47,294 bases of DNA, taken from contig JAQIBZ010000214.1 in assembly GCA_027858815.1 (NCBI GenBank), forward strand, positions 1-47,294, written 5' to 3'. Positions 21,848 to 39,000 of this stretch are shown here, piece by piece. Both the position numbers and the translations under genes were made by a program. The stretch's first letter is position 1, and each line of letters opens with the position of its first letter. Source of the stretch: Desulfobacteraceae bacterium (lineage in GTDB: Bacteria > Desulfobacterota > Desulfobacteria > Desulfobacterales > Desulfosalsimonadaceae). The notes under the pieces were generated by a model. The model saw only the letters and a list, made by a program, of their open reading frames with translations. It was not told the origin of the DNA and did not search any database.

Positions 21848-21926
<79 letters not shown>

Positions 21927-22203: not shown

Positions 22204-24252
22204 CTAATCCATAATCGCCTTCAACAGAGCATCTTTAACATCTGAGTAAAACTGAATATCGATTTTGGTGGCCATGTCATCAGATAGGTCAAACAGTTGT
22301 TTACGGCATGAAACCGGCATTAACAATGCCATAGCGCCTTTTTCAACTGCAATCTCAGTAATGTTTACGGCACTATGAATCGGTTCAATGGAGCCGCCCA
22401 GATTGACTTCTCCGCAAATGATTAATCCGCCGCGAATTGATTTTTTTAACAGGGCTGTACAAAGAGCGATTAATGCGGCAACGCCAATTTTCGACCCTAA
22501 TTTTGACGCATCAAATGCCCTTAACTGTACTGTAAATTCATGGTGGCGCGGGTCTTTATCCCCTACAAGTTGAGTCGATCGGGTATAAAGATTCTGTTCC
22601 GCGTATCCCATGCTTTCGCGAAAGGCCACCGGAATCGGCTTGTTCAGGATTTTAACACCGGAACCAGGTCCTTCATTGATTTCAAGGCGATAAAGGCCGG
22701 GATTATCCTCCAAGCCACCCGGGCTTATGGTCCAAACCTGCCCAGGTTCTAACGGATCTCCGCCAATACTGTTTTCGCTATGCAGTTCCGGCGTGGAAAC
22801 AAATTTTTCGACACCATCAGCCCCCAATACATAGCTGAAATGCGTATTACGAAATTCGGCCGCCCCGATGCGCTTTTGCTGTTCTTTTACTCGCCTTCTG
22901 GCTTCAAGGGCAATCCGCACTGCCCATTCAAGATCCTCTTCCGGAACTGTATTCTCATCGCCCGGATAGAGTAATTTTAATAATCCACTAATGGTTTTAT
23001 TAACAGCATTGGTGTCGCGCCCGCTGAGTGCGCCGCCAAAGAATACCCTGTTTTGGATATGCGATACCCTGCTTTGATTACGCAACTGGCTCCAGCATTC
23101 GGATATAAAATCGCTCACCAATCCAAAATGATCAGTGAGCATTTCTTTTTGTATTTTGGGAACATCCCATCCCGGAAGATATGCATGAATTCGATCCATA
23201 AAGGCGGTGTCATCTCTCATCTCTGGCGGCATTGGTCCGAAAAGGTGGCCAATACGTTGCTGATGCTCAACATCTACTTCGAAATTGCCGACAAGAACGA
23301 TACTGCCATCGGCTCGGATGCTGTCCTTGCCCCTGCTGAATTCGCCCGATTCCATATATCCCTTCATGATGTTGACGCCATCTTTTTGATCAAAGGATAT
23401 ACCGGATATTTCGTCAAAACAGACCACATCATATTGGCAAACCAGGCCGCGCTGGCCGGTTCCCATATGAACAAACATCCTTGCAACTGATGCTTTTCCA
23501 CCGGAAATCAGATGGGCATAGGGAGAGACCTGCTGAAATAAGTGGCTTTTGCCCGTACCCCGGGGGCCGAGTTCAACGATATTATAGTTTCGCTCGACAA
23601 ACGGCACCATCCGCAAAAGAAAGGCATTTTTCTGGCGTTCATCCAGCGTTTCAGGTTCAATACCAATACTCCGAAGTAAAAAAGATTTCCATTCATCTGT
23701 TGTAAACTTATCTCTTGCTTCAGCCAGCGTATCCAGAACCTCTCTTTTCGAGAGTTGAATTTCTCTTAAGTTTGCAATGCCAAAGGGATGGCCCTTGGTT
23801 TCCTGGGAAATTGCCGGATCATAGGTAAGTGTAATTTCGGAATAAAAACCGCCAGTCAGCATTCTTTCATGCCTATTGACAAGATCTCCACTGATTCGGA
23901 CATCCGTCAGTCTTAAACTCGGTAAAGTGGCAATGTATGAATCTGTTCTCGCATCCAGGCGGGCAGTAATCAGATCAATTATTTTAACTTCGCCATTCTC
24001 CCGCGCTTTTGCTTTAAAAAGCTCTTCTTCTCCCGCTTTGACACTTCGTGATTTTAGTTGTCGCTGGACAATTTCCAGGCCCTCTTCAATCTCTTCCTGA
24101 TCAATACTGGCGCAATATCGCCCCAACAGAAACTCAACCACATACGTCGGAACCGGAAACTGACGGCTGAAGGTTCTCACAAGGTCTTTACGGACCAGAT
24201 ATCCATCCAAAGACGATGCTGCGAGTTTATCAATATGATCCAATTCGATCAT
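22204..24252 (-). CDS. brxL: BREX Lon-like protease BrxL
   Basis: 682 aa. N-terminus LDGYLVRKDLVRTFSRQFPVPTYVVEFLLGRYCAS is typical of BrxL. It has an AAA-like core (ELGPRGTGKSH) and a Lon protease-like C-terminus. The ATG overlaps the pglZ stop (ATGA). Confidence 0.85.
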   Translation of the reverse strand: MIELDHIDKLAASSLDGYLVRKDLVRTFSRQFPVPTYVVEFLLGRYCASIDQEEIEEGLEIVQRQLKSRSVKAGEEELFKAKARENGEVKIIDLITARLDARTDSYIATLPSLRLTDVRISGDLVNRHERMLTGGFYSEITLTYDPAISQETKGHPFGIANLREIQLSKREVLDTLAEARDKFTTDEWKSFLLRSIGIEPETLDERQKNAFLLRMVPFVERNYNIVELGPRGTGKSHLFQQVSPYAHLISGGKASVARMFVHMGTGQRGLVCQYDVVCFDEISGISFDQKDGVNIMKGYMESGEFSRGKDSIRADGSIVLVGNFEVDVEHQQRIGHLFGPMPPEMRDDTAFMDRIHAYLPGWDVPKIQKEMLTDHFGLVSDFISECWSQLRNQSRVSHIQNRVFFGGALSGRDTNAVNKTISGLLKLLYPGDENTVPEEDLEWAVRIALEARRRVKEQQKRIGAAEFRNTHFSYVLGADGVEKFVSTPELHSENSIGGDPLEPGQVWTISPGGLEDNPGLYRLEINEGPGSGVKILNKPIPVAFRESMGYAEQNLYTRSTQLVGDKDPRHHEFTVQLRAFDASKLGSKIGVAALIALCTALLKKSIRGGLIICGEVNLGGSIEPIHSAVNITEIAVEKGAMALLMPVSCRKQLFDLSDDMATKIDIQFYSDVKDALLKAIMD

Positions 24253-26597
24253 TTATCACCTCCACCAATCAATGTGACAACCTGAGCCACAAGTTCATTG
24301 TTTTGGTCAATCACCACAATAGTCGCTTCACTTCCTTCCAGTTCTTCATTTTCAACCAGTACAGAGGCGATCCCATCTTTTTTAAAAGATTTCAGATTGT
24401 CAATGATGCTTGAGGCGCTATTTCCAGGCTGCTGCCGGATATCCAGCGATAACCATTCAATGTCCCCTTCCACGGCAACACGGCACCGCATTCCTTTCCA
24501 TTGCACATCGGCAATTTTTATTAGATCCGCTGCTTTCATTGACTTCCCGGGAAGAGCAATTAACTCCAGTGTCAGGCATTCCTGAAAGCTCAGACCGCCA
24601 TGGGAATATTCCAGTCCGTTACGGAAACAACTCACTCCATGGGCTATGGCAATTTGCTGATTTGGATTCCAATACCATGGGTAAAGATTTTCCTGGATCA
24701 CTGCGCCAGATTTTATGATTGCACATCGTCCCCACTTATTATCGGTGAGGGCGCTTGGAAGTTCATCTTTGGGCAACCCGCCGGGGACCAAAAGCCAACC
24801 GTGATCCGTTACCACACGCACGCGCTTCCATCCGGCATCCAGCAACCGGAGAATGCGGTCCTGTATTTCATTTAAATAGCCGTCGATATACTTCGATAAT
24901 TTCCACCCTTTTTCATGGCCTTCATGGTCAATATTGCCGAATTCGGTCCACCCTCGCGCCTGCTTATCTCCAACGCTTTTAGAATCAATGACTTCCCAGC
25001 CCGAATCTTTCAGCAATTTTTTAAAGTGATATCCGCCTTTAAGGGATTGCCCGGCGTCCTTGTCGTTGGGTTCAAAATCAACGCTGGTTTCCAGGCCGCG
25101 TATCTGCATTTTAACCGGTGACACAGCGGGTTTTCCGGTGGCGGTGATACTGGGAAGTGCGGCCCATACCGGTTTTTCACTCACCTGGCATCCGGCATGA
25201 TCCAGTTTTTCAGATAACCGTTTGGCCACATCAAATCGAAGACCATCAACAAACAAAATACATTCGCCTGCTGAATAGGACGACAATTTGGATTTTTCAA
25301 GTGGTCCCCCGGGATAACCATACTGATCTGCTATTTTCTGCAGATACCGTGCGGCTTCTTCCGCCCATGGCAGATATACGGCCCGAATGGCAGCAAAAAC
25401 CGCATCCGCGTCATCATTGTCTGAAACCAACAAAAGGGCCTGCATAACTGCTTCATCGGCACGCCATCCGGAATTTACATACCCCGCGGAAATGTCATCC
25501 ATAGTACCTGCGGTTAAGCTGTCCCCGGTTATTCGTGCCAGAACCGCCAAATGTGCCAGCGCCCGAGCAAGCGGGGCCTGTCCCAGTTCCGCCCAAACCA
25601 GTTTGCGTCTGTCCGCGTGTTTTTTTTCAAGATCCAGAAGCTGCTTGCGGGCTTTATGGTCCGGAAAAGTTTCAAGGCGCTTCAGGTCATTGCGAAGACG
25701 GGTTTCCGCACTTTCATTCCATTGGGGCCATGCGCCGTGGGACTCGGCATTTGAAAACAAATCCACTGGCGGCAGGGCACATTTTTTGATCTGGCCGGGG
25801 ATATTCGGATATTTGTGCGGCGCCTCGCAGAACCGTTCCCAGGCGCCATGCCAGGGACCTTCATGTCTGGCAAGTTTTTCAACGCCGATCAGGGCGCCGT
25901 CATTTTCCAGGTGAAATGCAAATTGTGATTTGCAGACACTCACAAATGCCGTGAATTCATTTTCACCCCGTCCGGAACGGAATGCATCCCCCTGGTCCAG
26001 CCATTGCAGTAGATCCCGAACCGGGTCACCACTGGTTAACAAGGTATTAAAATAATCCTTGTCCAGATGTTTGCCTTTTAAAAAGTCAACGGGTTCATCC
26101 ATCAGCGGATACAAGCCCAGCAGCATGGCATTTTTGGTGTCATTATCCCGGGCCACATCCAGCCCCAATCCGCCCTGATCGGACTTCAAAAACGCCATGA
26201 CCGTCCAGTCCTTTGCATTGACCTGGGACCATATCACCCCGCGATATTGCAATTCCGCCAGGGGTTTTAAATAATCCGGGCAGCTTTCAACAGCCCGGAG
26301 GTCCTGACGGCCCACGCCCGGCAAATATAAGATGGGCGGATTCTCCCGCGCAATGTCAAACCTTTCCACTTTACCGGCAATCACGCACCGCAGCCAGATC
26401 GCCGGTCCTTTTTGATTGTCCGGTGCGTATTCGCCCAGGACAAACAGTTCCGGCAGTTCATTTTGCAGATAAGGGATTATCGCTTCCCATTGCCGGTCCC
26501 GATCCGGCCAAAGGATACAGGCAGGTGCTGACTGGACTTCGGGATTAAAAACAGCGGCGTCACGGACAGCTTTCAGGAGATGATCAAGCACCCTCAT
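24249..26597 (-). CDS. pglZ: BREX alkaline-phosphatase-superfamily protein PglZ
   Basis: About 780 aa with ACILWPDRDRQWE N-terminus and a PglZ domain (ILFVDGLRFD, VTDHGW). The ATG at 26597 overlaps the stop of the upstream gene (ATGA); the track ORF starts at 26615. Confidence 0.85.
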   Translation of the reverse strand: MRVLDHLLKAVRDAAVFNPEVQSAPACILWPDRDRQWEAIIPYLQNELPELFVLGEYAPDNQKGPAIWLRCVIAGKVERFDIARENPPILYLPGVGRQDLRAVESCPDYLKPLAELQYRGVIWSQVNAKDWTVMAFLKSDQGGLGLDVARDNDTKNAMLLGLYPLMDEPVDFLKGKHLDKDYFNTLLTSGDPVRDLLQWLDQGDAFRSGRGENEFTAFVSVCKSQFAFHLENDGALIGVEKLARHEGPWHGAWERFCEAPHKYPNIPGQIKKCALPPVDLFSNAESHGAWPQWNESAETRLRNDLKRLETFPDHKARKQLLDLEKKHADRRKLVWAELGQAPLARALAHLAVLARITGDSLTAGTMDDISAGYVNSGWRADEAVMQALLLVSDNDDADAVFAAIRAVYLPWAEEAARYLQKIADQYGYPGGPLEKSKLSSYSAGECILFVDGLRFDVAKRLSEKLDHAGCQVSEKPVWAALPSITATGKPAVSPVKMQIRGLETSVDFEPNDKDAGQSLKGGYHFKKLLKDSGWEVIDSKSVGDKQARGWTEFGNIDHEGHEKGWKLSKYIDGYLNEIQDRILRLLDAGWKRVRVVTDHGWLLVPGGLPKDELPSALTDNKWGRCAIIKSGAVIQENLYPWYWNPNQQIAIAHGVSCFRNGLEYSHGGLSFQECLTLELIALPGKSMKAADLIKIADVQWKGMRCRVAVEGDIEWLSLDIRQQPGNSASSIIDNLKSFKKDGIASVLVENEELEGSEATIVVIDQNNELVAQVVTLIGGGDK

Positions 26598-28123
26598 TTT
26601 TGTCCGACCTCCCATCGCCCTTGCTTCCGCGACCCGATACGGTGCAAAATTCCGGCTTTCTTGAGTTTCTGAATATGCCGTTTGATGGTCGAGGCGCTTA
26701 CCCCCACCTTTTCCGCCAATTGAAGATAATCGCTTTGCGGATCTTTCCGGATGGCAGTTATAAGGTCAGCATGGATTTTTAAAAGGTCATTTATCGGGTC
26801 ACCCTGACCTTTTATGTGACCTTTTACCCTTTGTTTTTCCGCGATATCACCTGTGGCTTGTGGGCTTAAAGGTCTATTTATAAGTTCAAACTGACCTTTT
26901 ACCTGTTGAATGGTGGTTTGCAAATAATCATCCGTGACCTTAAAAATCGGTTCCACTCCCACCGCCTTCAACGCCGGCACAACCTTGGTTCGCACCCCCA
27001 TGCCTCGGGCGTCCACATACCCATAATCCCTCAGCACTTCCACAATGATATGATTCCTGGCCGAACGTTGACCGGCAAGCATTTTATCAATGGTCATGGC
27101 ATTGGGCAGTGCGCCGGGGCTGATAATTTCAAGGCGGTTTTTATATCCGACGATTTCAACATCCACAAATCGGGACCAATCCCGGTGGGCCAGGGCATTA
27201 ACCAATAATTCCCGAAGGGCTTCGTAGGGATAAAACCAGATTTTTTCCCGCCGGAAATTTTCGTCAATGCTGTCGGGTTCCAAGGTCACAAAAGGTTCCA
27301 TTGTTTCCAGGGTTTTTTCGATCAAGCCAGCGTCGATGAGTGTTTTTCCGGCTTTTCCCACCTGAAACCGTCCCACCAAAGGGGCATCTATCACTTTGTC
27401 CAGCCGAGCCTGATATTCTTTGTCCAGCGAGTCAAAAAACATGAGTCTGACGCCGGAATGTTTCAATGTCTGCCGGGGTTTGACGCCAAACAGCACCAGT
27501 CCGGCGATGGTGCAAACCGGTGCATCCGCAACGCTGTCCGTCATAAACCCCAAAGCTTTCAGTCGGTCAATCCAGGCATTTCTTTCACCAGGCACTTCCG
27601 GGTCCCGCAGAATATCTCGCAGATAGTTCTCCAACCGGGCCATATCCAGAGAATCAATGGACGTGCGGTTTACCGGCATAATTTCCGGGTGCACCGCACC
27701 GGAAGCCGCACCAAGCATTAAAAGTTGTTCCCGGGAGGCCGGCCGGGTCACACTGCCGATCCGTACATAGGCTGTTTCCCGGTCATTGGCCCTTACCACA
27801 TAGGGTTTGAAGATTTCGGGGCCGATGGTGATCACGGCCACCCGACGGCCCTCCCCCATGGCGACTTCTTCGTAATAGGGCAGAATCTGCGGATGCACAT
27901 ACCGGCCAAATACCGTATCCGCCACCCATTCGCTTAAGTTCTTGCGAAAAATGCCCGAGATGGTTCCGTCATCTTCCACGCCCAAAAGAATGCGGCCGCC
28001 TTTGAGATTGGCAAGGGCCACAATTTCCCTGGCCAACTGCTCGGGCCGGATGTCATCCCGCTTGAATTCAACGCCGGAATTCTCGCCATTGGCTATCAGG
28101 TCAAAAATGTCTTGTTTTTTCAT
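26594..28123 (-). CDS. AlbA_2 / Schlafen-like divergent-AAA protein with HATPase_c_4-like middle and C-terminal wHTH
   Basis: N-terminus IANGENSGVEFKRDDIRPEQLAREIVALANLKGGRILLGVEDDGTISG (AlbA_2-type). Middle is EALRELLVNALAHRDWS...LEIISPGALP. C-terminus is LQLAEKVGVSASTIKRHIQKLKKAGIL. AGGAGC RBS upstream. Confidence 0.7.
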   Translation of the reverse strand: MKKQDIFDLIANGENSGVEFKRDDIRPEQLAREIVALANLKGGRILLGVEDDGTISGIFRKNLSEWVADTVFGRYVHPQILPYYEEVAMGEGRRVAVITIGPEIFKPYVVRANDRETAYVRIGSVTRPASREQLLMLGAASGAVHPEIMPVNRTSIDSLDMARLENYLRDILRDPEVPGERNAWIDRLKALGFMTDSVADAPVCTIAGLVLFGVKPRQTLKHSGVRLMFFDSLDKEYQARLDKVIDAPLVGRFQVGKAGKTLIDAGLIEKTLETMEPFVTLEPDSIDENFRREKIWFYPYEALRELLVNALAHRDWSRFVDVEIVGYKNRLEIISPGALPNAMTIDKMLAGQRSARNHIIVEVLRDYGYVDARGMGVRTKVVPALKAVGVEPIFKVTDDYLQTTIQQVKGQFELINRPLSPQATGDIAEKQRVKGHIKGQGDPINDLLKIHADLITAIRKDPQSDYLQLAEKVGVSASTIKRHIQKLKKAGILHRIGSRKQGRWEVGQK

Positions 28124-28172
28124 TGAGCTCCTCTTGTCGACGACAAAAGATAGAAGAGAGACGCATAACGAA

Positions 28173-29186
28173 TCATAAGGTCTTCTCCATCATTTCCACT
28201 AATGCCATTTCCAGGCGTTCATCTTCTTCATCCTGCAGGCTGAGATAGAGAGAAAAATGGTCCACGCGATTGTTTTTTACAAACAATGCCGGGTCATACC
28301 GCCACAACTCTATGCGGCAAGTACCTGTGTCTTCAACAGGAATCTGCTCAACCCGGTCCGCGAGCTTTTTCCAGTCACGGCGGCCCAATGCATAGACCGG
28401 TTCATTCGGCGGAACCAGCATACTCAGGTCCGCAAGTGCGATTTCGCCCGCTTTCATCCGCTGATCTGGCGGCAGATGATCCTCCTTTATACGGAGTATT
28501 TTACGCACCGGGGTACGCAAATACGGCAGGGCTTCCTGCCACAAGGTGCGTCCGTCAGTGGGAAAATCAAGCAACCGTTCACGGCCTTCACGGGTTATTT
28601 GACCCAAACCGCTTCCTTCGATCTCATCCAGCGCCCGTGTCATAGACATTCCGGCATAACCCAGTTTGCCGGCCAATTCCTTGGGGGTGGTCGGTGTTTT
28701 TATCCCGCCATTGAGCGCATAAATCAGAACCGCCTGGGTCGCCGGTGTGAACGTTTCCGTTTTAGCCGGTGCCCTTGCTGTTTTTCGGGCTTGCGCAGCA
28801 ACCCCCAATTCCGGCCAATACAACTGTTGTCCGGGTATCACAAAAGGAATATGCCGTTCGATCAAACGGCGACGGGTGTATCCCGGCAACTCCTGAGCAA
28901 TCAGGCAGAAATCATCAAAAGCATCATTTGCCATGATCTGGCGCAGGTGTTTTTCAAATGCGGCGGGACGAAAGTTTTCGATATCTTTGATCATGATTCC
29001 CAGGAAAGCCCGTTTACCAACAGTGAGTTTCCGCAACGCATATTGTTGATTCAAGTAGTGAGGCAATGGTCTGGATACAGCTTTGCCCCAGGTGACAGGC
29101 ATGCCGGCCAGCTTAGTGATGTATTCAATAAATCGATGTGCTAAATTTTCCATGAGATATAATAACTTTTTTTTGTACAATAACAT
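28173..29186 (-). CDS. Hypothetical protein with central winged-helix motif (unassigned family)
   Basis: 326-337 aa with TPKELAGKLGYAGMSMTRALDEIEGSGLG as an HTH-like segment. The start is uncertain (29186 or ATG 29153). The long antisense ORF 28257..29144 has an implausible R/C/Q/F-rich composition. Confidence 0.55.
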   Translation of the reverse strand: MLLYKKKLLYLMENLAHRFIEYITKLAGMPVTWGKAVSRPLPHYLNQQYALRKLTVGKRAFLGIMIKDIENFRPAAFEKHLRQIMANDAFDDFCLIAQELPGYTRRRLIERHIPFVIPGQQLYWPELGVAAQARKTARAPAKTETFTPATQAVLIYALNGGIKTPTTPKELAGKLGYAGMSMTRALDEIEGSGLGQITREGRERLLDFPTDGRTLWQEALPYLRTPVRKILRIKEDHLPPDQRMKAGEIALADLSMLVPPNEPVYALGRRDWKKLADRVEQIPVEDTGTCRIELWRYDPALFVKNNRVDHFSLYLSLQDEEDERLEMALVEMMEKTL

Positions 29187-29215
29187 TTAAAAAGTTACTA
29201 TGCAAAATAAATGTT

Positions 29216-29240
29216 TCTAAGTTGTTAAAAACAACTTAGA
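29216..29240. promoter_or_regulatory. Perfect palindrome TCTAAGTTGTT-AAA-AACAACTTAGA
   Basis: 11-bp arms read directly, about 30-60 nt upstream of the wHTH gene start candidates. Confidence 0.5.
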
Positions 29241-29256
29241 TGGCCGGATTTTAAAT

Positions 29257-29281
29257 AGTTAATTGCGATCGGCAATTAACT
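29257..29281. promoter_or_regulatory. Perfect palindrome AGTTAATTGC-GATCG-GCAATTAACT
   Basis: 10-bp arms read directly, in the same intergenic region. Confidence 0.5.
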
Positions 29282-29305
29282 TAAAGCATAAACATGCAAC
29301 ATCTT

Positions 29306-29633
29306 TTAGAGTTTGAATAAGCGCATGGCCTGATCCACCAGTTTGGTGGTACGGGCGTCAATCCTGGCCTCGTTCCAATCTGTTTCGGAAGCCAAGTCCC
29401 CATTTGGTTTCAGTCCATTCTTATAACCAATCCCCCGGACCGATGCGTTTTTCCGGTGCTTAGTCGCCAAGGGCCAGGAGTTCAGACAACTCGGCCTGCA
29501 GGCCTGGTATCACTGCTTCAAACTGTCAGTCGCGGTCCGGCCAAAGTATGCATGCCGGTGCTACTTGAATTTCCGGGTTATAAATGGCAGCACTCCGGAT
29601 CGCTTCCGTTAATATTTCATTCACCAATGTCAT
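29306..29633 (-). pseudogene. Decayed N-terminal remnant of a second pglZ fused to an unidentifiable C-terminal fragment
   Basis: Minus-strand translation from ATG 29633 gives MTLVNEILTEAIRSAAIYNPEIQVAPACILWPDRD*QFEAVIPGLQAELSELLALGD*APEKRIGP. It aligns with the intact PglZ N-terminus (MRVLDHLLKAVRDAAVFNPEVQSAPACILWPDRDRQWEAIIPYLQNELPELFVLGEYAPDNQKGP). The two in-frame stops fall where R and Y are expected. The rest, in another frame, reads GIGYKNGLKPNGDLASETDWNEARIDARTTKLVDQAMRLFKL* and ends at 29306. Confidence 0.75.
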
Positions 29634-30295
29634 GCCAGAGCCTCAAGGCGATTTAACCAGTCATTGAATAACGGGCATTCGCCGCGCATTTTATCCAAAC
29701 CGATTTCCAGCGCAGCCAGTGAACCATGTATCGGTTTATCATATTCTGAATAAATCCTTATGATGCGTTTGCTCGGGGCCGTTTCAGGGTTATCATTGAT
29801 TTCCTCCGGTGAATCAAATTTTTCCCGTATACCTCTAAAGCGACGTTCCAGCTCGTTTCGGTCGATACCTTGCGCCAATGCGGCCGGGTCACTGAATAAA
29901 AGCGCCTCGAATTCATGCATCTGTATGTAGGGAATAAAGCGGCGCAGAGGATCTTTTGTCAATTTCTCCTTTAAGGCATCAGAAAGCATATGCAGCAGGC
30001 AGTCCGACTTCTCCTGACTGTTGATTTTCTGTTGTGATTCCGTTTTCCCGGGGAAGTTGTTGGGTAGGCCATAGAAATCAAAAAAAGTCGTACAGTAGGC
30101 GTCCGGATCACCTTGTAGCCGGATGCGCAGATCCGTCAGAAGCCGTTCAAATTTAAAATTACCCCCTTTATGCCCGGGTTTTCCGATCAGAGATGGATAA
30201 AGATAGATGTCACGAGAAATAAAATAGTTGGCGAGCACTTGGTGAATGAACATTTCCTCGGTTTGGCCTTCGCAGATCACATGCACCCTAATCAT
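29630..30295 (-). CDS. DUF4276-like protein (predicted Toprim-like partner of the upstream ATPase)
   Basis: Starts MIRVHVICEGQTEEMFIHQVL. ATGA overlap with the ATPase stop (30292-30295) and ATGA overlap of its own stop with the pglZ remnant start. The family name is from memory of this N-terminal motif and the ATPase pairing. Confidence 0.6.
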   Translation of the reverse strand: MIRVHVICEGQTEEMFIHQVLANYFISRDIYLYPSLIGKPGHKGGNFKFERLLTDLRIRLQGDPDAYCTTFFDFYGLPNNFPGKTESQQKINSQEKSDCLLHMLSDALKEKLTKDPLRRFIPYIQMHEFEALLFSDPAALAQGIDRNELERRFRGIREKFDSPEEINDNPETAPSKRIIRIYSEYDKPIHGSLAALEIGLDKMRGECPLFNDWLNRLEALA

Positions 30296-31404
30296 TTGGT
30301 CGGCCTCCCCCCCAAAATGTTCTTTTCCCAAAGTTCACCGACCGAGTATTCCTCCAGCCATGTTTTAAAGTCTTGTTCAGAATATTGCTTGAAGATCGTC
30401 TCTCCTTGTTCCCTCTCAACTATAACAAGGTCATCGATTGAAAATTCATTAACCAAAGGCACGGACTGAGTCGAGACGATCAATTGCATCCGTTTTGAGG
30501 CCGAGCGCAGCAGGCCACCCAATAGGGAAATGGCATATGGATGGAGGCCGAGCTCCGGTTCGTCGATAATAATCGTGGAAGGCGGGTCCGGTTGCAACAA
30601 TGCCGTAACCAGGCAAATAAACCGGATGGAGCCATCTGATAACTGGTTTGGCCAGAATGCATAATCACTGTCTTTTTGCCGCCAGAGAAGCCGGATCTGT
30701 TGTTCTTCTGATTCAAGTGATTGTGGCTTGAGAACAAAGTCATCAAAAAAAGGTATGGCAAGGCGTGTGGTTTTGCGGATCTGCTGGTAGACTTTGGGGT
30801 GTTCCTTATTCAGTCGATATAAAAAGGCAGACAGGTTGGATGCATCTGATCGTAGATATTCATTATCATGAAGCGAGCCAATTCGTTTAACTCCAGCGGT
30901 GTCGCTGGTATCATGGAAATGGTAGACTTTCCAACTGGAAATGGAGCTGTAGCAATAATCCGCCACGCTTCCTTTATTCAATTTTTCGAATTCTTCCTTG
31001 AGTTTTGCTTCCAGGTGTCCGGCACCTAATTTTATCCATTTAGGCCCGTAATGTGGTCCCTTGAAGAATAATTCCTCATTTGCAAAAGAGAACCCGCCGT
31101 CAATCGTAGGTTCAAGCGTGAATCTGTATCCATTCAATGCGAATTCGATGAAAGACTCAATCTTGCTCGTTTCCTTCACCCCAAAGCTGACAATACGGTC
31201 TGACGATCCCTGATTGCGCGTCCAGCTTTGCTGCCGGCCTTCGACCATCTCGCCGAGCATACGAAAATAGGAAACGAAATTGCTCTTACCGGCACCATTG
31301 GCGCCGATCAGCACATTTAAGTTTCCGAGCGTAAATTTTTCAAGGTTCCTGATGGATTTGAAACCTTTGATGGTCAGCCGGTCTATTTCTTTTTTTGTGC
31401 TCAT
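30292..31404 (-). CDS. ABC/SMC-like AAA ATPase (AAA_15/AAA_21-type)
   Basis: Walker A LIGANGAGKSNF, signature-like QLSDGSIRF, Walker B/D-loop TIIIDEPELGLHP. ATGA overlap with the pglX stop. Confidence 0.8.
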   Translation of the reverse strand: MSTKKEIDRLTIKGFKSIRNLEKFTLGNLNVLIGANGAGKSNFVSYFRMLGEMVEGRQQSWTRNQGSSDRIVSFGVKETSKIESFIEFALNGYRFTLEPTIDGGFSFANEELFFKGPHYGPKWIKLGAGHLEAKLKEEFEKLNKGSVADYCYSSISSWKVYHFHDTSDTAGVKRIGSLHDNEYLRSDASNLSAFLYRLNKEHPKVYQQIRKTTRLAIPFFDDFVLKPQSLESEEQQIRLLWRQKDSDYAFWPNQLSDGSIRFICLVTALLQPDPPSTIIIDEPELGLHPYAISLLGGLLRSASKRMQLIVSTQSVPLVNEFSIDDLVIVEREQGETIFKQYSEQDFKTWLEEYSVGELWEKNILGGRPTK

Positions 31405-34400
31405 GATCCCGCCTCCCGTGCGGCGCTTTTTTCAGCCAGCCTTAAATGATGGTCATTGATACGGTCACCTTTGTTGCCGCCATATTGGGGGCCAAGATGA
31501 TACCAAGGAGCGGATTTTACATCCTTGCCCCGGTCTTTTTTCCAGTGGATATTGGGCTTGTCGCGTAAACACCCGGCGCCGCGTTTACCCAAATCGGGAA
31601 CGGACATGAAGGGACGGATATTGAGACGAACACCGTCGTTTAGATCCGGGTTCCAGCCCATGGGTTGTTTTTCGATGGGTTTCCAGCGGACAAAGATATC
31701 ATAGGGAGCTTCTCCTTCGAGAATCAGCTCCAGTTTTTTCTTTAATGATTCAGCCGCAGCCAATTTTTCCTGAGCACCATCAATGCCGTTTGCAATATCC
31801 TGTTTCTGGCGGGTGATCCAATCGCCCAGATAGGTATAGATCAGGGTTTCCAGGTTTTTGTAATCCAGTTTGTGATAATTCACAAGAGCAGCAAACCCGT
31901 CATGCATTCCGTCCCAGATATGCCAGATAAAAGGTCGGTGGTGGAATAGCTTGCAATGCTGAATAAAAAATTTGTCTCGCAGCCAGGTATCCAGGGTTTT
32001 GCCTACATGGTCGCTATTTTTAAGGAGCTGGCCAAGCCAATTTTGAAAAGTGGCAGTGGAAGCGGCATCCTGCCGCTTTTTATCAAGAGGCTGGAAGCCT
32101 CTTCCACTTTCCCACACAGCGGCCAAGAGATTGATCAACCGGTCAGCGGCGGAAGATTCGCCGCGCAATGGCGAAATACAGACAATGCCGTCTTCATCGG
32201 CAAAAGGCAGTAGCTCCCTTGTTTGCTCCACCCAGGCACGGGATTCATCAGAAAGTTCCATAGTGGAAGCGCCATCCTGGCGCTTGTTTTCAAGCGGCTG
32301 GAAGCCGCTTCCACTCTCCAGTTCCGCAGGCCATCGGTAACCAAGGAGGCAAGCAACAGCAACCTGCAAAACAGTAGCATCAGTGCGCAATGTAGAAGCG
32401 ACTTCCAGTCGCTTTTTCTCTTCATCCCAGATCACCGAGCCGCTTGGGTGGCCATGGAAAATCCATTGGGTGGGGTCGTCGGAGTATGGTTTTGGCAGGC
32501 CGTTGGGGTATTTTTCTTCGGCGACCTTGGTCCAGTGGTCGAGGTCGAATGGGACTTTGGTTATTGTTGCAGCCGTTACTTTAAGGGATTGATCGACAGC
32601 GCGAACATTGTCATGAAAATCACTCGATTCAACATATGCCCATATTACTGGAATGGCGCTATTATTCGTTGGGCAAATAGGACATACGTTATCATCAAAA
32701 GCTGAACCTGAATATAAAAATGGCTCTAATTTTTTCATTTTGTTCACAACCACGCCTTTACGATTGAAAACATTTTGACCATGCAACCTACATCCAAGTT
32801 GAGAGTTCAGTTCAACGTCATCTAATGGGACCTTGCAGACTTGCCCACGCCCTGACCAGGGCGATAACCCGTTTGGAGAATTAAGCCAGTAAACATGTGT
32901 ATCAGCGACTTTTGGAAACTCCCAAAAATTCATTAAAAATCTTGGGCAATCTCCGGTAGTGCTTCCTTTACCGTAATCAGCCACATTGGCTAATAAAACT
33001 TCATTTGAAAGATCATCAAACACCACCCTTGCATCTGGATTATCCAATTGTTTGGCCTGTTCCACGCCTTTGATTTCACTTGTCAATAATCCCGTGGCTT
33101 TTTCTTCGGCATTATATGGTTCAGAGACATCCAGGCCGTAAAAGTAACCAGATCTGGGCGACATAGCTACTTCTTCACCCCGACTCAATGAAATCAGAAT
33201 TGCCTTAACCACTTCTCCACTAATTGTCTCAAACGCCCCAGACCCTAATCGTGCAATCAAATGCCAGGTATCGTTTTTAAGTAATTTTTCTCTGAATTTC
33301 TTGTAGCTGGTTAAAAACAGCCAGTTCTGCGGAAGCACAATACTCGTGGAGCCACCCTTTTTAGACAATTCCAGACAACGATCCAGAAACACAGTCGCCA
33401 AATCGTTTTTGCTTTTCGGGTAATGTTTTTCACTAAATTTTCTTAGCGTTTCACCTTGCTTGCCCCTCTTCAGATAAGGCACATTGGTAATCATCCAATA
33501 ATATTTACCAGCCAAAATCTGCGCGGCCTTTGCCAATCCCTGAGCAGTCACGCCGATTTCCCGCTCCTCGAACGCCCGATCTTTTTGCAAAACTGTTTCA
33601 ACAGCCGTGGCCAGTCCATCCCACTGCACCAATTTTGCCACGGCAGTGCGCATGGGATCAATCAAACTGCCAAGCACAGGCGCATATTTAAACTCCTCAT
33701 AAAGGCCGACCAGGGCCAGGCGAAGCTTGGAGTCCCCATTAGCCAATTTTTCCCATTCGGATCGGGGCACACTCACGGACAATCCGGAACATGCCACATT
33801 CATTTCCGGTAATTGACGGTAACCACCAGAGTCAGGATACTTCCATGCCTCGATCGCCAAGGCAAAGGCAGCCAATTCCACACAGCGTTTGTCAATTTCT
33901 AGGCCATGGATATTTTCCCGCAGCACCGCATCCACTGCCTCACGGACGGTCAGGTCTTCGAGTTCTATACGCATGGGCACCAGCATTAAAAAAGCCGCTA
34001 CCAGGAAATGGCCAGACCCACAGCAGGGGTCAAGGGTTTTAAGTTCACTTAAATACTTCGGCCACCCGCCAAATGTGCCGGCAGCTGGTTGCCAAATAGT
34101 GGAAGCGGCATCCTGCCGCTTTTTATCAAGCGACTGGAAGTCGCTTCCACTTCCACTTCTCTTACAAGCAGAGTGCCCCCTGATATACAGCCTTATTTTC
34201 TCCAATTGCGCCGGATTCCGGACAATATGATCGAAAGATTCCTTTTGCCAAAAAACACCGCTTCTTCGTGCTGCCTTATTAATTTCGTTTGCAGTGAATG
34301 ACTTCCATGAATGAAGAATCCCTGAGAGATCATGTCCACCCTTGGGAGTTACCAAGACATGGATATGATTGGGCATTACCACGAAATCATCCAGGTCATA

Positions 34401-35576
34401 ACGATCACCGTCAAAATGTTTTAACGCATTTTCAACGATCGTTTTATATTCAGCGTGTTTGAGCAAACATTCGCCATAACCCTGATCGAGCCATTTTTGG
34501 ATACGGTTGGAAAATTTTTCATAGAACTCTTTTTTTGTTTTTTCATCGTGAGGTTCAGGATGCTGTTTTAGCCACTCGTCTTTTTCAGTTTGCCATGATT
34601 TCAGCTTTTCCTGTGGGAGAGAATCGGAGGTTCGGAAAGTGACAAAGTAGGTAACGCCTTCCTGTCTCCAATGAGGAAGATTTCCTGAAAGGTTGGCTAT
34701 CTCTTCGTCTTTATGGAAATAGTCGATTTCTTTCAAGCGGCTGGAAGCCGCTTCTACTTTCACAAACCGAAGGTATTCCAAAGGCACACCAGGAAGGGAT
34801 GCTTTTTGACGAAGTTCTTCTTCTGTTTGTGCATTTTTCAGATCAGCTTCACTTAAGCGCCTTGCCGCCCACCAGGCCCCCAAAGAATTATCCAAAAGAA
34901 AAGACACCATATAGGGTTCTGTAAAAAGCTGGGTCACCGCCGGGAGTTCCCGGGCGCCGATCTTTACTTCTGATGCGTTGACCTCTTCCTTCTTCTTGGC
35001 CTGCCAGAACTGATATACCCAGCCCAAGGAATCAGAAGCAGTAAAAACATCTACTGATAAATCGGCTATGAGGCGCTCCAACCTTTGCTGGTGTTCCGGC
35101 GGTAGTGTGAGTTGAAACACTGGTGAATCGATCCGGAAAATCTGGGGCAACATGCGCGCGGCATATTTTGCTGCCAGTTCCCACCCATTTTTGGCACCTT
35201 CATCATGGGCCAGATCTTCACAATCCTGAAGGGTAACAGGGACCGGATCATCCGGGTCCGGATACATGAGCAGGTTGTTTTCTGCTAAAAATCGAGCAAA
35301 TAGCATGCGGTGCCAGTGCTCATAAGCCACTTCTTCAATGAGCCTCTCAATCTCTTGAACTTGAGTATCACCGTTGCGATTATCACCCAACTGACGGCCA
35401 TGGGCACGCAATTGAACCCTCAGTTTCCGATCATCTTCAGTAAGATGTGAAAATGGCTTGGCCTCGCCCACGCCAAGTTGATTTAAGGATGCATTGGCCG
35501 CTTCCTCGGCGATGTCCCGGGCGTCCTTGACAGTACGTTCCAGTTTGTTTCGGAGTGCTTTTTCCAGTGGCTGCAT
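31401..35576 (-). CDS. pglX: BREX N6-adenine DNA methyltransferase PglX, 1391 aa, with in-frame RAYT and REP insertions
   Basis: PglX-type N-terminus with motif I LDPCCGSGHFLV and motif IV MITNVPY. GAGG RBS lies 5 nt upstream of ATG 35576. The ORF is uninterrupted despite the insertions listed separately. Confidence 0.85.
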   Translation of the reverse strand: MQPLEKALRNKLERTVKDARDIAEEAANASLNQLGVGEAKPFSHLTEDDRKLRVQLRAHGRQLGDNRNGDTQVQEIERLIEEVAYEHWHRMLFARFLAENNLLMYPDPDDPVPVTLQDCEDLAHDEGAKNGWELAAKYAARMLPQIFRIDSPVFQLTLPPEHQQRLERLIADLSVDVFTASDSLGWVYQFWQAKKKEEVNASEVKIGARELPAVTQLFTEPYMVSFLLDNSLGAWWAARRLSEADLKNAQTEEELRQKASLPGVPLEYLRFVKVEAASSRLKEIDYFHKDEEIANLSGNLPHWRQEGVTYFVTFRTSDSLPQEKLKSWQTEKDEWLKQHPEPHDEKTKKEFYEKFSNRIQKWLDQGYGECLLKHAEYKTIVENALKHFDGDRYDLDDFVVMPNHIHVLVTPKGGHDLSGILHSWKSFTANEINKAARRSGVFWQKESFDHIVRNPAQLEKIRLYIRGHSACKRSGSGSDFQSLDKKRQDAASTIWQPAAGTFGGWPKYLSELKTLDPCCGSGHFLVAAFLMLVPMRIELEDLTVREAVDAVLRENIHGLEIDKRCVELAAFALAIEAWKYPDSGGYRQLPEMNVACSGLSVSVPRSEWEKLANGDSKLRLALVGLYEEFKYAPVLGSLIDPMRTAVAKLVQWDGLATAVETVLQKDRAFEEREIGVTAQGLAKAAQILAGKYYWMITNVPYLKRGKQGETLRKFSEKHYPKSKNDLATVFLDRCLELSKKGGSTSIVLPQNWLFLTSYKKFREKLLKNDTWHLIARLGSGAFETISGEVVKAILISLSRGEEVAMSPRSGYFYGLDVSEPYNAEEKATGLLTSEIKGVEQAKQLDNPDARVVFDDLSNEVLLANVADYGKGSTTGDCPRFLMNFWEFPKVADTHVYWLNSPNGLSPWSGRGQVCKVPLDDVELNSQLGCRLHGQNVFNRKGVVVNKMKKLEPFLYSGSAFDDNVCPICPTNNSAIPVIWAYVESSDFHDNVRAVDQSLKVTAATITKVPFDLDHWTKVAEEKYPNGLPKPYSDDPTQWIFHGHPSGSVIWDEEKKRLEVASTLRTDATVLQVAVACLLGYRWPAELESGSGFQPLENKRQDGASTMELSDESRAWVEQTRELLPFADEDGIVCISPLRGESSAADRLINLLAAVWESGRGFQPLDKKRQDAASTATFQNWLGQLLKNSDHVGKTLDTWLRDKFFIQHCKLFHHRPFIWHIWDGMHDGFAALVNYHKLDYKNLETLIYTYLGDWITRQKQDIANGIDGAQEKLAAAESLKKKLELILEGEAPYDIFVRWKPIEKQPMGWNPDLNDGVRLNIRPFMSVPDLGKRGAGCLRDKPNIHWKKDRGKDVKSAPWYHLGPQYGGNKGDRINDHHLRLAEKSAAREAGS
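32056..32107 (-). repeat. REP copy A (52 nt, two hairpins plus closing stem) inside pglX
   Basis: GTGGAAGCGGCATCCTGCCGCTTTTTATCAAGAGGCTGGAAGCCTCTTCCAC, translated in frame as SGRGFQPLDKKRQDAAST. Confidence 0.85.
32263..32314 (-). repeat. REP copy B inside pglX
   Basis: GTGGAAGCGCCATCCTGGCGCTTGTTTTCAAGCGGCTGGAAGCCGCTTCCAC. Both stems differ from copy A by compensatory changes. Translated as SGSGFQPLENKRQDGAST. Confidence 0.85.
34099..34150 (-). repeat. REP copy C inside pglX, directly downstream (gene sense) of the RAYT domain
   Basis: GTGGAAGCGGCATCCTGCCGCTTTTTATCAAGCGACTGGAAGTCGCTTCCAC, translated as GSDFQSLDKKRQDAAST. Confidence 0.85.
34173..34679 (-). mobile_element. REP-associated tyrosine transposase (RAYT, IS200/IS605-like HUH-Y1) domain read in frame within pglX
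   Basis: LPHWRQEGVTYFVTFRTSDSLP...DDFVVMPNHIHVLVTP (HUH)...SWKSFTANEINK...VFWQKESFDHIVRN...RLYIRGH (candidate catalytic Tyr). No own ATG or RBS is visible. Confidence 0.75.
34731..34757 (-). repeat. Half REP (second hairpin only) upstream (gene sense) of the RAYT domain
   Basis: TTTCAAGCGGCTGGAAGCCGCTTCTAC matches the right half of copy B with 1 difference. It is read in a different frame, as VEAASSRLK. Confidence 0.75.
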
Positions 35577-36038
35577 AACACCTCAGAGTTGCCGGGAAAG
35601 AATCCCGGCCTACGATGACGAATTCTTTTTTGGTAGGTCGGGATTTCATTCCCGACATTGATCTGCATTAAAATTTACGTTTTTATTGCAACATTCATTG
35701 CGCGTGAGCATTAAAATGCGCATTTAATGGCTTTTTAATGATGGATTCACATTAAATGTCACATTAAACCAATTTTAATGTGATCGGGAATGTGAATTCA
35801 CATTCGGTTCATCAAATGGTCCGAAACCATTTTGCGGGCCATTTAAAAAAAATTGGCCCTACATCGGCCCGGGTGCAATTATCGGTGCACTTTCATGGAT
35901 ATTTGCACATTTTAAGAGTTGGTCAAATGGTACAAATCCATTCTTGAACCATTGTTTGATTAAAATGGACCAAAAAATGGCGCAATACCATTGCGGGTAA
36001 TCCGACCCCCTTTCCGGGCGGTTCGCATAACGCAGCTC
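35577..36038 (-). promoter_or_regulatory. 460-nt non-coding region between brxC and pglX, dense in palindromic operator-like sites; probable internal promoter/regulatory region
   Basis: No ORF of 60 aa or more. Three AAATGG-N7-CCATT sites (35814-35832, 35925-35942, 35975-35992). Perfect palindromes at 35759-35783 and 35788-35805 share TCACATT half-sites. Hairpins lie just upstream of the pglX RBS. Confidence 0.6.
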
Positions 36039-39000
36039 CTATTTAATCGCAATCGGTCCCTGATTCAAGGCAGACCTGAGCAGTTGTCCTGTTTCCTTGA
36101 TCCATGCGTCAATATCATCATCTGTTTTAAGGGTTCGCCGGGGAACTTTGACGAATTTAACTTCCGGCTCCATTAAAACGGCGGCGGCTTCAATGACTTT
36201 GTCAAACCGGGAGGACATGGCCGCCACCCGATCAATTAACATAGGCAACGGGAATTTTCGTAATGTGACCAGTACATCATTTGTGGTCTGTACATTTATC
36301 TCCGGTTTTGTTTTTTCCGTCAGCATTTGTTCTGACAGGAGATGATTGCGTTGCTCCGGTTCCAGTTGTTTCCAGTTGTCATCTTCTCTTAACCGGTTCA
36401 TACCGTTTTCGTGATTTTTCTGATATTGCGCGTCCAGATCATTTAGCGCGTCGCGCAGGGTCTGGGTCACATTTAAGATCAAGGGCGACACCGGGTCCGG
36501 ATCGGACAGCAACAGGCGCTGTTCTTCAACTTTGGCCACCTGGGCGGAATAGACGTCCCCATCTTTTAATTCCCGGGCCTGGGTAAGCAGCGCTTTGAGG
36601 GTTTCCCATGCCGGGAGGCGTTTTTCAATGCGGTCTGCCAAATCTTTCCATTGATCAATGGCCCGGAAAAATTCATCGCGCTGGGTATAAATCGCCAGTA
36701 ACTGTTCGTTGCCGGCCAGCAGGCGGATTTCATTTAATGCGGACGTATCCGGCAAAACGGGTTTGGGCGCATCACCCCCGGCACACGATGCCAGATTCAA
36801 CAGTTTATCAATAAATTGCGGGGCCATGATGAGTTCTTCCCCGGATTTGGCCTGGCAGCCGATTTTTTGCATGACTTTACGGATCTGAATGCGCTGGGCC
36901 GTTGTCACGGTGGTCGCCTCAATTTTATACAGGGCTTTTCCCATGGCTTTGCGTTCCAGCTCACGCGGATCAACGGGCTTGCCATGATCGTCCGCGGCGC
37001 GAATCAGGCCGGCCACCAGAAGCACCTGCAGCCCGCCGTCCACCGCATCCCGGGACCACCCAAAGGGCGGGGTTTCAAAGTGCTGACGGAGTTCCGCCCC
37101 TTTTTTCCCGCTGCCGATAGCACCCATAATGGCTTTACACACCGGGTTATTGGAAGCTTCATCGTCAAAACCCACTGCTTTTAAAGCATCTGGTGCACCT
37201 TTCTTAGCATTTGAATAGACTTTGTCCCATCCTTTATGGTCTGATATTTGAAATTGATCATAAAGGCGAATTAAGGCATTTTTTGCAGCTTCAAGGACCA
37301 TTTCTTGTAAGTTGTTTCCAATGATTTCATTGCCACCACCCTGAAAAACACGGGCACCTGAAAACGCTTCTCCCAAAAGTTCATTTATTTTTGCTTCTGC
37401 ACTCTGACGGGTAGTTTTCATTGCAGAACGTGCTTCCTGGCCTTCCGGAGTATTGGGCACCCCTCGAATTTCCAGAGTGGAATGAGCTGCTTTATAAACA
37501 AGCAAATTGTGCCTGAGATCATCCGCAGAACGTCTGGGTATATAGACAAACACCGTTGGCGAGTGATTCCCAGCCTGCCGGGCATCTGCGAGAACTGTAT
37601 TTTCAGGGTCACGCCAACCGTCTCTGATCCAGATATAAATTTTCTGAGTGTGATCACTCGGCAATTGTGCGTCAAAAACCGGAAAAATATCGCGACTGAC
37701 AATGGAAGTGCCCTGAGTAAGGGATAATTTTTTGACTAATATTGAAAATCCTGCACGGATGCGATCAACCCGCTCTGCCTCAATACGATGGGCTGTATTT
37801 GCCAATTGACTGCGTTGGTTTTGAAATTCATCATTCCATGCTGCGCTTTCTTCTGTCTGGATGCGGTATTCATCCCCGACTTTCATTAAAAGTTCACATT
37901 TATCAAGTAAAGCAGGAAGTTTGTTTCGCAGGTTGCTACTGCCTACTGAAAGATCATCCACCATTAAATCGGCAATAGAATCGATGGTTGCCTTGATTCC
38001 GATTTCGTTGTTTTTCCCCCCCAACTTATTGATCAGAAAAATAATCCCACATGCACGGGACGTACATCTTTCATCTGCCGTTCCGCTGACCCATTTCATG
38101 GTCTTTTCATGAATTTTTCGTGGCAGGATACGGGATTGGAGCAACTTATCCGCTGAGTCAAAATATAAATAATCCGCCGGCACGACATTTCCTAAGGGCT
38201 CATCCAGATTGCTCTGGATCACTTTATGGATCATGCTGAGCTGATTACGGAGCTGGCTTTCGGTTCCGGTTTGATCCAGCACCCGCAGCGTGTTTTCCCA
38301 AAAGCGTCGGCGGACCGGAAGAATAGGGTAATCCTTTTCAAAACAGGGAATATCATCCTGATGATGGCCGATGGTTGTGCCTGCTAAATGTCTGGAGATT
38401 TCTCCGAGATTCGTTTCCATTTTCTTTTTTATAAGCGGAATGGCTTCAGCGGTTTTGGCTAAAACGACCTTTCGGATGACAGTGTCCACATCAGTATCAG
38501 ACAATTCAATGCGGACCGTAAAACGGCCTTCAAGTTTTTTCAGATTGCGCGTCCCGGTGACGGCAGTTTGTCCGGTCCCCACAAATAAAAGTTTGCCGCC
38601 GATCTGCTTACAGCATGCTTCCACCACTTCCTGAACGGCATTGGAACGCTCAGGGTCTCCCTCTCCGATATATTGCTGCACTTCATCAAGGGCAATGAGC
38701 GATAGGGGGAACTTTCCATCACGAGTCAAGGCATCCCGAATGCTTTTAATCATTTCATCATTGCTGATATCCGAAACATTTGGATACAGACGGGTCATGA
38801 TTTCAACAGCGCTGTTATCTCGAGAAAATACTTTCGGCTTAACTACGCAAAGGGCTTCATATAAGCCTTCGGCAACATGAAAATTGTCAATTTCGGTCTG
38901 CCAGTTATATCCGTTATTTTCAACATGCTTGCAGATTTCATCATAAATGCCTTCTGATTTAAGCCACATGACAAAACGTGCTACCGGGTATTGTTCCGGC

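Follow-up and report, generated by a model that had tools for sequence, protein, structure and literature searches.

An HEC-01 ATPase and DUF4276 gene pair between pglX and pglZ in the type 1 BREX operon of a Desulfobacteraceae bacterium

The closest described relative of the gene pair analysed here is HEC-01 (Hma-embedded candidate 01), which was introduced by Payne, Hughes, Fineran and Jackson (bioRxiv 2024, 10.1101/2024.01.29.577857), is included in PADLOC-DB v2, and was defined as an ABC ATPase with a TOPRIM partner sharing a metal site with the OLD nuclease of B. pseudomallei. The pair in question, coding for an ABC-type ATPase of 370 amino acids and a DUF4276 protein of 221 amino acids, lies within a bacteriophage exclusion (BREX) operon of a Desulfobacteraceae bacterium, on contig JAQIBZ010000214.1 of assembly GCA_027858815.1, the 47 294 nucleotides of which constitute what we call the window. 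The window is a metagenome contig, and identical copies of the locus are found on two further JGI contigs from two samples. The original prediction for this locus, made from the DNA alone, considered the pairing to be experimentally uncharacterised. This proved wrong, because it corresponds to HEC-01 of PADLOC, which has been assayed twice, with one negative and one positive outcome, and because deletion phenotypes exist for the distantly related Mad3 and Mad4 proteins.

Several other described systems are relevant. In the methylation-associated defence system (MADS) of Pseudomonas aeruginosa SMC4386, Mad3 and Mad4 are an AAA_21-type ATPase and a DUF4276 protein, encoded in a methylation-associated operon and both needed for defence there: deletion of mad3 or of mad4 weakens protection, and mad5 is deletable solely alongside a deletion of mad2 or mad3. 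DUF4276 was classed as Toprim, and linked to Mad4, in the paper on Menshen, and MADS3-4 was counted among the ABC ATPase and Toprim systems in the paper on PARIS. Payne et al. carried their principle of ‘guilt by embedding’ over to BREX, and discussed whether Ocr and other anti-BREX proteins may be what triggers an ABC-ATPase system embedded there (10.1101/2024.01.29.577857). A survey of BREX (NAR 2026, PMC12839542) reported OLD-type ABC ATPases linked to nucleases, chiefly of the Toprim type, in at least 1242 taxa of BREX and related systems, and read these modules as a back-up effector layer.

The HEC-01 pair and its place in the BREX operon

Both genes are on the minus strand, that of the ATPase at 30292-31404 and that of its partner at 29630-30295. 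The ATPase matches the PADLOC HEC-01A model PDLC04175 with an E-value of 4.1e-147 (488 bits; residues 4-368 of the protein on positions 3-362 of the 363 of the model) and the DUF4276 protein matches the HEC-01B model PDLC04188 with 5.8e-83. Since every other PADLOC family scores far lower, we assign the pair to HEC-01 and call the two proteins HEC-01A and HEC-01B; both models are thus matched by adjacent genes on the same strand. The lower-scoring families for the ATPase are AriA, mad3, NsnB, AbiLi, Old and GajA. For HEC-01B, no Pfam family besides DUF4276 was found at E ≤ 0.01, and no PADLOC model besides HEC-01B at E ≤ 0.001.

HEC-01A displays a Walker A motif (GANGAGKSN, residues 34-42), a signature-like LSDGSIR (residues 255-261) and a Walker B motif (IIIDEPELGLHP, residues 278-289), and it matches Pfam AAA_21 with 1.3e-29. 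Conservation was assessed on 70 HEC-01A/HEC-01B pairs of 39-100% identity. The residues of HEC-01A that are invariant or nearly so in this set are G34, N36, G37, G39, K40 and S41 of Walker A, the S256-D-G triplet, D281-E282, H288 and the T312-Q-S triplet. The last one (residues 312-314, window 30463-30471) is kept in 69 of the 70 sequences and contains no histidine. It is situated near what we take to be the usual place of the H-loop of ABC ATPases. An AlphaFold model of HEC-01A (pLDDT 80) fits about equally well the ABC heads of PtuA (from Septu and from a retron), Rad50, SMC, RecN, GajA and OLD, and a sequence search of the PDB returned generic ABC heads alone. Among solved structures, none stands out as the nearest to this ABC ATPase.

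HEC-01B starts at an ATG with MIRVHVICEGQTEE and matches Pfam DUF4276 with 1.3e-55, all 192 of the 192 profile positions being covered. Its residues E9, G10, E13, D73, E128, E130, S135 and K187 are invariant in the 70 pairs. A profile search of PDB sequences gave one match, aRF1 (E 0.037), which was judged spurious; HEC-01B having no solved close relative, a fold comparison was therefore needed. The AlphaFold2 model, built from 29 homologues, has a pLDDT of 92 and a pTM of 0.88. Its best four Foldseek matches in the PDB are all C-terminal regions of class 2 OLD nucleases (6nk8, 6njw, 6njv and 6njx), with probabilities of 0.97-1.00, TM scores of 0.40-0.54 and E-values of 3e-3 to 1.4e-2; for 6nk8 the probability is 1.00 and the TM scores are 0.49/0.54. 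The C-terminal region of these nucleases is their Toprim-containing part (Payne et al., 10.1101/2024.01.29.577857). From the model, a Toprim-type alpha/beta fold is predicted for HEC-01B, and the match to OLD, although of modest strength, is consistent with it. In the model, E9 is found right after strand 1 (residues 2-8) and D73 closes the third strand (residues 67-73). The site may be completed by E13, E128 and E130, which are also acidic and invariant, and in published alignments its metal-binding positions are shared with BpOLD.

The pair can thus be placed within the broad class of ABC ATPase and Toprim defence modules, as originally proposed, and it remains to say how it compares with the individual members of this class. 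Its resemblance to HEC-01 is the most complete: here too, an ABC ATPase is followed by a DUF4276/Toprim-like protein, both proteins match their models nearly end to end, and the family was found by the same embedding logic, in a methylation-based defence operon. However, HEC-01 was defined from Hma operons, whereas the host system in the window is BREX type 1; the tested representative has a different sequence; and in the window the pair is joined to pglX by a coupled junction and bears the scar of a pglZ. MADS is distant: HEC-01A reaches 85.7 bits with the NCBIfam MAD3 model, for which the cut-off is 420, and 85 bits with PADLOC mad3 compared to 488 with HEC-01A, and HEC-01B does not match mad4. 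Membership in MADS was rejected on these grounds, the only other mads match in the operon being a weak one of PglX with mad2, which leaves mad6-8, mandatory for MADS, unmatched, and the host operon being BREX.

PARIS (AriA/AriB) is the best mechanistic parallel for the pair. It also consists of two genes, for an ABC ATPase and a separate Toprim nuclease, it is embedded in some BREX loci, and it senses Ocr, an anti-restriction protein. Its nuclease, however, belongs to DUF4435 rather than to DUF4276, and AriA, with 53-55 kDa, is larger than the 370-amino-acid ATPase studied here. Membership in PARIS was rejected because no AriB, DUF4435 or RloB match was found for the partner in Pfam or PADLOC. 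HEC-01A does match PADLOC AriA (PDLC02980) with 1.4e-26, but this is 120 orders of magnitude worse than with the HEC-01A model, and the match looks generic since Pfam AAA_21 is matched by exactly these residues too (29-318), over a span that likewise comprises 304 positions. No AriA chain appears among the top 50 structural matches of the HEC-01A model.

The class 1 and class 2 OLD proteins and GajA also combine an ABC ATPase with Toprim chemistry, and the Toprim region of BpOLD and XccOLD is the closest solved fold for HEC-01B. But in these proteins a single polypeptide carries both parts, and Gabija has a UvrD-type helicase in addition. Assignment to OLD or Gabija was discarded, because the window contains two separate open reading frames (ORFs) with their own starts and ribosome-binding sites, and no UvrD-like gene was found in the operon with Pfam. 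Septu (PtuA/PtuB) and the retron-associated PtuAB are likewise two-gene combinations of an ATPase and a nuclease, and the structures that best fit HEC-01A include PtuA hexamers and the PtuA of a retron, but the partner nuclease of Septu is of the HNH type whereas that of the window is Toprim-like. As to AbiL/RloAB, the ATPase matches AbiLi weakly (1.3e-22) and the partner has no RloB or AbiLii match in Pfam or PADLOC, so that this assignment was rejected as well.

The operon that hosts the pair is a complete type 1 BREX system, recognized with PADLOC, NCBIfam and Pfam, the six genes of which are all on the minus strand between 22204 and 40815. From the upstream end, these are brxA (40027-40815; PADLOC BrxA, 3.5e-107), brxB (39489-40040; PADLOC BrxB, 8.7e-83), brxC (36039-39482; PADLOC BrxC, 1609 bits), pglX (31401-35576), which codes for a BREX-1 methyltransferase of 1391 amino acids (PADLOC PglX, 1717 bits; NCBIfam BREX_1_MTaseX), pglZ, of type B and coding for 788 amino acids (24249-26615; NCBIfam BREX_PglZ_1_B, 1.2e-281; PADLOC PglZ, 1059 bits, full length), and brxL, coding for 682 amino acids (22204-24252; Pfam BrxL_ATPase, 1.5e-132; PADLOC BrxL, 3e-300). 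The HEC-01 genes are located between pglX and pglZ. Reading of the DNA confirmed three ATGA overlaps, between the stop of pglX and the start of HEC-01A (31401-31404), between the stop of HEC-01A and the start of HEC-01B (4 nucleotides, 30292-30295), and between the stop of HEC-01B and the next ATG (29630-29633). HEC-01A and HEC-01B each have their own GGGAGG Shine-Dalgarno sequence, 7-8 nucleotides before the ATG. In these respects (the two ORFs, the ATPase motifs, the type of the two proteins, the overlaps and the BREX surroundings) the original prediction was borne out.

Its further claim, that the pair is co-translated with BREX components, holds upstream, with pglX, but not downstream, where the ORF coupled to the end of HEC-01B belongs to a dead pglZ. 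This is the pglZ remnant that had been noticed from the start, and it is real: the region 29633-29424 (minus strand) is a degraded 5′ fragment of a second, diverged pglZ, which has 35 codons in the coupled ORF and 70 codons if two in-frame stops are read through. When PglZ N-termini were compared with the fragment by tblastn (E 1e-25 to 8e-30), the one from the intact PglZ of the window showed 57% identity and the one from another BREX locus, L031 of the survey described below, 73%. Given this difference in identity, we consider it as the scar of a different pglZ allele, and not as a duplication of the resident one. The functional pglZ lies 3 kb beyond the fragment, behind a palindrome-bearing intergenic region and two embedded genes. 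In four other loci (L019, L022, L031 and L056), the intact pglZ begins at the exact stop overlap of HEC-01B, an arrangement that the scar of the window implies.

HEC-01 pairs in other genomes

A scan of one genome per species revealed at least 592 relatives of HEC-01B, the 80 closest of which were analysed as loci. Wherever the upstream DNA is present in these 80 loci, a HEC-01A homologue directly precedes HEC-01B, and the commonest junction is the 4-nucleotide overlap. In 11 of them, the pair is found between pglX and pglZ of a BREX-1 operon; the hosts of copies in this position include Desulfuromusa, Shewanella, Pseudomonas, Colwellia, Riflebacteria, Pirellulaceae, a cyanobacterium and others. 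Three additional BREX loci with a HEC-01 pair were found independently (L116, L134 and L140). The same gap accommodates other systems as well. In locus L014 (5254-12626) it contains Gabija (GajA/GajB), HEC-01 and Septu (PtuA/PtuB); in L022 (6930-8231) a Septu PtuA lies beside HEC-01; in L009 (7707-8753) there is PDC-S19 (DUF3644), together with a homologue of the 337-amino-acid gene of the window discussed below; and in L017 (10721-14098) a second full pglX follows HEC-01.

About 67 of the 80 loci have no BREX. In the Chloroflexota (Anaerolineae/Phototrophicaceae), 12 or 13 loci carry the pair at one syntenic chromosomal site, next to an ABC transporter operon and genes for a CitMHS citrate transporter, an aldehyde dehydrogenase and a family 4 glycosidase, with no defence genes nearby. 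The loci concerned, most of them at the syntenic site, are L023, L024, L027, L029, L030, L032, L038, L041, L044, L047, L049, L052 and L054. This looks like the long vertical retention of a free-standing pair. All the genes within about 10 kb of the non-BREX copies were clustered, and for the remaining 55 loci Pfam families were tallied for the two nearest genes on each side. These nearest genes turned out to be overwhelmingly of the housekeeping type (transporters, tRNA synthetases, dehydrogenases and the like), and neither the clustering nor the tallies brought out a recurrent defence family among the neighbours. The enrichment in defence islands that had been anticipated is thus verified only in that the pair recurs in BREX; outside BREX the closest relatives are mostly amid housekeeping genes, and the idea of a general association of HEC-01 with defence islands was dropped. 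We also abandoned the idea of a single BREX-specific clade, because in a neighbour-joining tree, a crude one without support values, the BREX-embedded copies are not monophyletic: they make up at least two groups, among which free-standing copies are interspersed.

Traces of movement are visible elsewhere than in the window. Short C-terminal fragments of pglX lie directly upstream of HEC-01A in L018 (8723-8890), L067 (8216-8317) and L035 (2176-2244). No BREX was present within 10 kb in L018 and L067, and in L035 the fragment is bordered by a Schlafen-type gene on one side and by HEC-01A on the other. Along with the pglZ scar of the window, these pglX scars indicate that parts of the BREX flanks accompany the cassette when it moves.

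Other features of the locus

The region between the pglZ fragment and the intact pglZ starts with two perfect palindromes, located in an AT-rich spacer upstream of the gene for a 337-amino-acid protein. They were found by a repeat search, one at 29216-29240, with 11-nucleotide arms and a 3-nucleotide loop, and the other at 29257-29281, with 10-nucleotide arms and a 5-nucleotide loop, and the whole (29216-29281) has a DNA folding energy of -17.6 kcal/mol (z = -7.4). A weak promoter-like site overlaps the palindromes, which may constitute a terminator or an operator and divide the BREX operon into two transcription units. A scan of 26000-36500 for promoter and terminator consensus sequences gave a number of sites not above that of shuffled sequence; with the scan at chance level, the argument for such a division comes from the palindromes themselves.

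The 337-amino-acid protein (28173-29186, minus strand), which has no Pfam, PADLOC or NCBIfam match, has a homologue of 38% identity at the same position in the BREX locus L009, and a weak MarR-type helix-turn-helix match was obtained there. The second embedded gene (26594-28123, minus strand), which overlaps the start of the intact pglZ by 22 nucleotides, codes for a protein of 509 amino acids with Pfam domains SLFN_AlbA_2 (2.1e-18), HATPase_c_4 (5e-15) and HTH_24 (2.1e-9), i.e. a Schlafen/AlbA_2 domain with a HATPase_c_4 domain and a winged helix-turn-helix. The 2026 BREX survey found proteins with a Schlafen-kinase-winged-helix arrangement in association with BREX and BR loci, in at least 1017 taxa, and described them as a frequent candidate RNase linked to BREX (PMC12839542). 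From its domains, the 509-amino-acid protein is a candidate for a further embedded effector. Homologues are present in the BREX loci L035 (66% identity) and L132 (77%).

In the sister contig L001, which encodes an identical HEC-01B protein, pglZ (13699-16064) is called as two ORFs of 692 and 96 amino acids and brxL is shorter by 7 amino acids, which could be due to a frameshift variant or to an assembly error. About 280 nucleotides past the end of brxL in the window there is a tRNA-Pro(GGG) gene (21849-21925, plus strand), so positioned that the 18.6-kb BREX island extends between this gene and genes for a SAM synthetase, a PfkB protein and a methyltransferase. No integrase was seen around the island in the window.

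The pglX gene itself shows two kinds of in-frame insertions. One is an insert of about 210 amino acids (residues ~285-495; window 34090-34720, minus strand) between the N-terminal domain and methyltransferase motif I, which matches Pfam Y1_Tnp (35 bits when taken alone, for a cut-off of 23) and the NCBIfam model of the transposases associated with repetitive extragenic palindromic (REP) sequences, i.e. the REP-associated tyrosine transposases (6.7e-15). It is IS200-like and its HUH motif (PNHIHVLV) is intact. The PglX proteins of L019 and L017 are devoid of it, while nine diverged PglX genes from metagenomes contain a copy of 57-72% identity. Related Y1 modules exist at varied positions within other type IIG-like methyltransferases (of the Eco57I/MmeI type), and also in a leucyl-tRNA synthetase (LeuRS) and in a Mur ligase. 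In the PglX of L031 (1088-5140, 1350 amino acids), the site of the Y1 insert is occupied by a DUF559 domain, a Vsr-like endonuclease (Pfam, 3.3e-23, residues 314-407), and short repeat-like peptides are found at matching C-terminal positions. The linker of PglX thus appears to be a hotspot for insertion of nuclease-type domains.

The other kind consists of REP-like hairpins of the form AAGCGRC-N3-6-GYCGCTT. Six are present in the 47-kb window, all of them inside pglX, while none would be expected by chance; the pattern search located them at 34098-34158, 34721-34758, 32060-32078, 32292-32310 and 32396-32414. They flank the Y1 insert as imperfect inverted repeats of 38 nucleotides, and in the C-terminal part of the gene they create two in-frame inserts of about 18 amino acids each (SGSGFQPLENKRQDGAST-like). 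A double hairpin in pglX has a folding energy of -18.8 kcal/mol (z = -7.1). The 38-nucleotide pattern had no match in a scan of metagenomes, and an exact 23-mer of the repeat was found in 59 metagenome stretches, 16 of which are BREX loci. About half of 64 copies of the repeat are in frame within long ORFs, including housekeeping genes such as cobN and a gene for a Kdo transferase. The element is reminiscent of REPtrons, in a form that coding sequences have come to tolerate or domesticate, and pglX may owe variation to it. The words HUH, transposase, RAYT, DUF559 and Vsr are absent from the text of the 2026 BREX survey (PMC12839542), and the Y1 domain with its REP-like hairpins in pglX is a more unusual feature of the locus than the HEC-01 pair.

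What the pair may do

How can the presence of the pair in this operon be explained? Our preferred explanation, to which we would give a probability of about 0.7, is that it is an autonomous HEC-01 module, made of a sensor ATPase and a nuclease, which was captured in the pglX-pglZ gap of BREX and is co-expressed with pglX. Its mode of action may be pictured from what is known of PARIS, Gabija, Septu and OLD. HEC-01A and HEC-01B would assemble into a complex, in which HEC-01A would act as a sensor or regulator and hold HEC-01B inactive until a phage cue is perceived; the freed or activated Toprim nuclease would then cleave nucleic acid, either tRNA or DNA, and abort the infection. Since the pair overlaps the stop of pglX, it would share its transcript with the first half of the operon and would thus provide a second, mechanistically different layer of defence. 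The cassette would spread among BREX loci by homologous recombination via the conserved flanks. That it could serve as a back-up or guard for BREX, as was suggested in the original prediction, is plausible, and is a hypothesis already published (10.1101/2024.01.29.577857; PMC12839542).

Several points weigh against an autonomous defence module. The structural match of HEC-01B to the OLD Toprim is modest (E 3e-3, TM about 0.5), and the classical Toprim DxD is not evident in this protein, the corresponding motif being D73-x-Y75, invariant in the 70 pairs. The HEC-01 representative of Payne et al. protected against none of the phages assayed (10.1101/2024.01.29.577857). One HEC-01 cluster of a cold-seep study (Nat Commun 2026, PMC12881386) did protect E. 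coli B, the phages concerned being one or more of T4, T5 and T7, but the report gives no magnitude of protection for HEC-01. Finally, Mad3 and Mad4 are required for the function of MADS, and the independence of the module from its host system can therefore not be taken for granted.

This last point leads to the possibility that the pair works as an arm of the BREX operon and not as a system of its own; it would be an ATP-driven nuclease which executes or amplifies the restriction of unmethylated DNA under the control of methylation by PglX, in a way comparable to Mad3/Mad4. Besides the phenotypes of the mad3, mad4 and mad5 deletions, one may invoke that the authors of the MADS study took methylated plasmid from a mad3 mutant, that the pair is translationally coupled to pglX in the window and directly to pglZ in the four loci mentioned above, and that its slot in BREX is always the same, between the methyltransferase and PglZ. 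Yet about 67 of the 80 relatives live without a nearby BREX, amid housekeeping genes, independent systems (Gabija, Septu and PDC-S19) use the same slot, and the similarity to MAD3 is weak; for these reasons we regard a BREX arm as unlikely. It is also established that most BREX-1 operons function without such a pair, and the HEC-01 cluster reported as protective had been cloned alone, in a host without such systems (PMC12881386). A related proposal, which we hold with similar reserve, is that in BREX loci HEC-01 is wired to its host, either as a guard sensing the inactivation of PglX or of BREX by anti-BREX proteins, or as a BREX-dependent nuclease arm like Mad3/Mad4. If so, the strict position of the pair, at the stop of pglX and ancestrally at the start of pglZ, would reflect a stoichiometric or physical link with PglX and PglZ.

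Alternatively, the pair could be a module without a role in defence, selfish or of the addiction type, for instance a toxin-like nuclease with its ATPase regulator, which hitch-hikes in recombination hotspots and for which the gap is just a permissive landing site. The lack of enrichment beside defence genes outside BREX goes in this direction, as does the observation by Payne et al. that for most of the candidates embedded in Hma there is no enrichment in the vicinity of other systems (10.1101/2024.01.29.577857); so do the negative phage assay, the scars showing that the cassette moves with flanking fragments, and the description of Pfam AAA_21, which ties the domain to AbiEii toxins. We nevertheless find this quite improbable, since in the Chloroflexota the pair is kept at one syntenic site in many diverged genomes with all the catalytic residues intact, which argues for a function beneficial to the host, since one phage assay was positive (PMC12881386), and since every well-studied pairing of an ABC ATPase with Toprim is antiviral. 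A decaying, non-functional passenger, which stayed behind after two BREX loci had recombined, might also be imagined, because the adjoining downstream gene is a dead pglZ fragment with two stops and part of the imported segment has thus decayed. We give this very little credit, however: both ORFs are full length when compared with the profiles, every residue invariant in the family is present, the strong Shine-Dalgarno sites and the 4-nucleotide overlap have been kept, and both ORFs are identical in the two further contigs from two samples.

What, then, does an autonomous HEC-01 module in this operon mean? The concept, the family and its occurrence in BREX were all published before, and the finding therefore mainly confirms existing catalogues. 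What is added here is that HEC-01 is an obligate, tightly coupled pair which is usually free-standing, that the pglX-pglZ junction is a docking site common to several ABC-ATPase systems, and that scars of pglX and pglZ show movement of the cassette among BREX loci by recombination via conserved flanks. The phage data on HEC-01 are in conflict. Should the proposal of an autonomous module be correct, the locus would represent a further case of layered immunity, in which a nuclease module of the abortive-infection type has a fixed place inside the operon of a methylation-based system, BREX.

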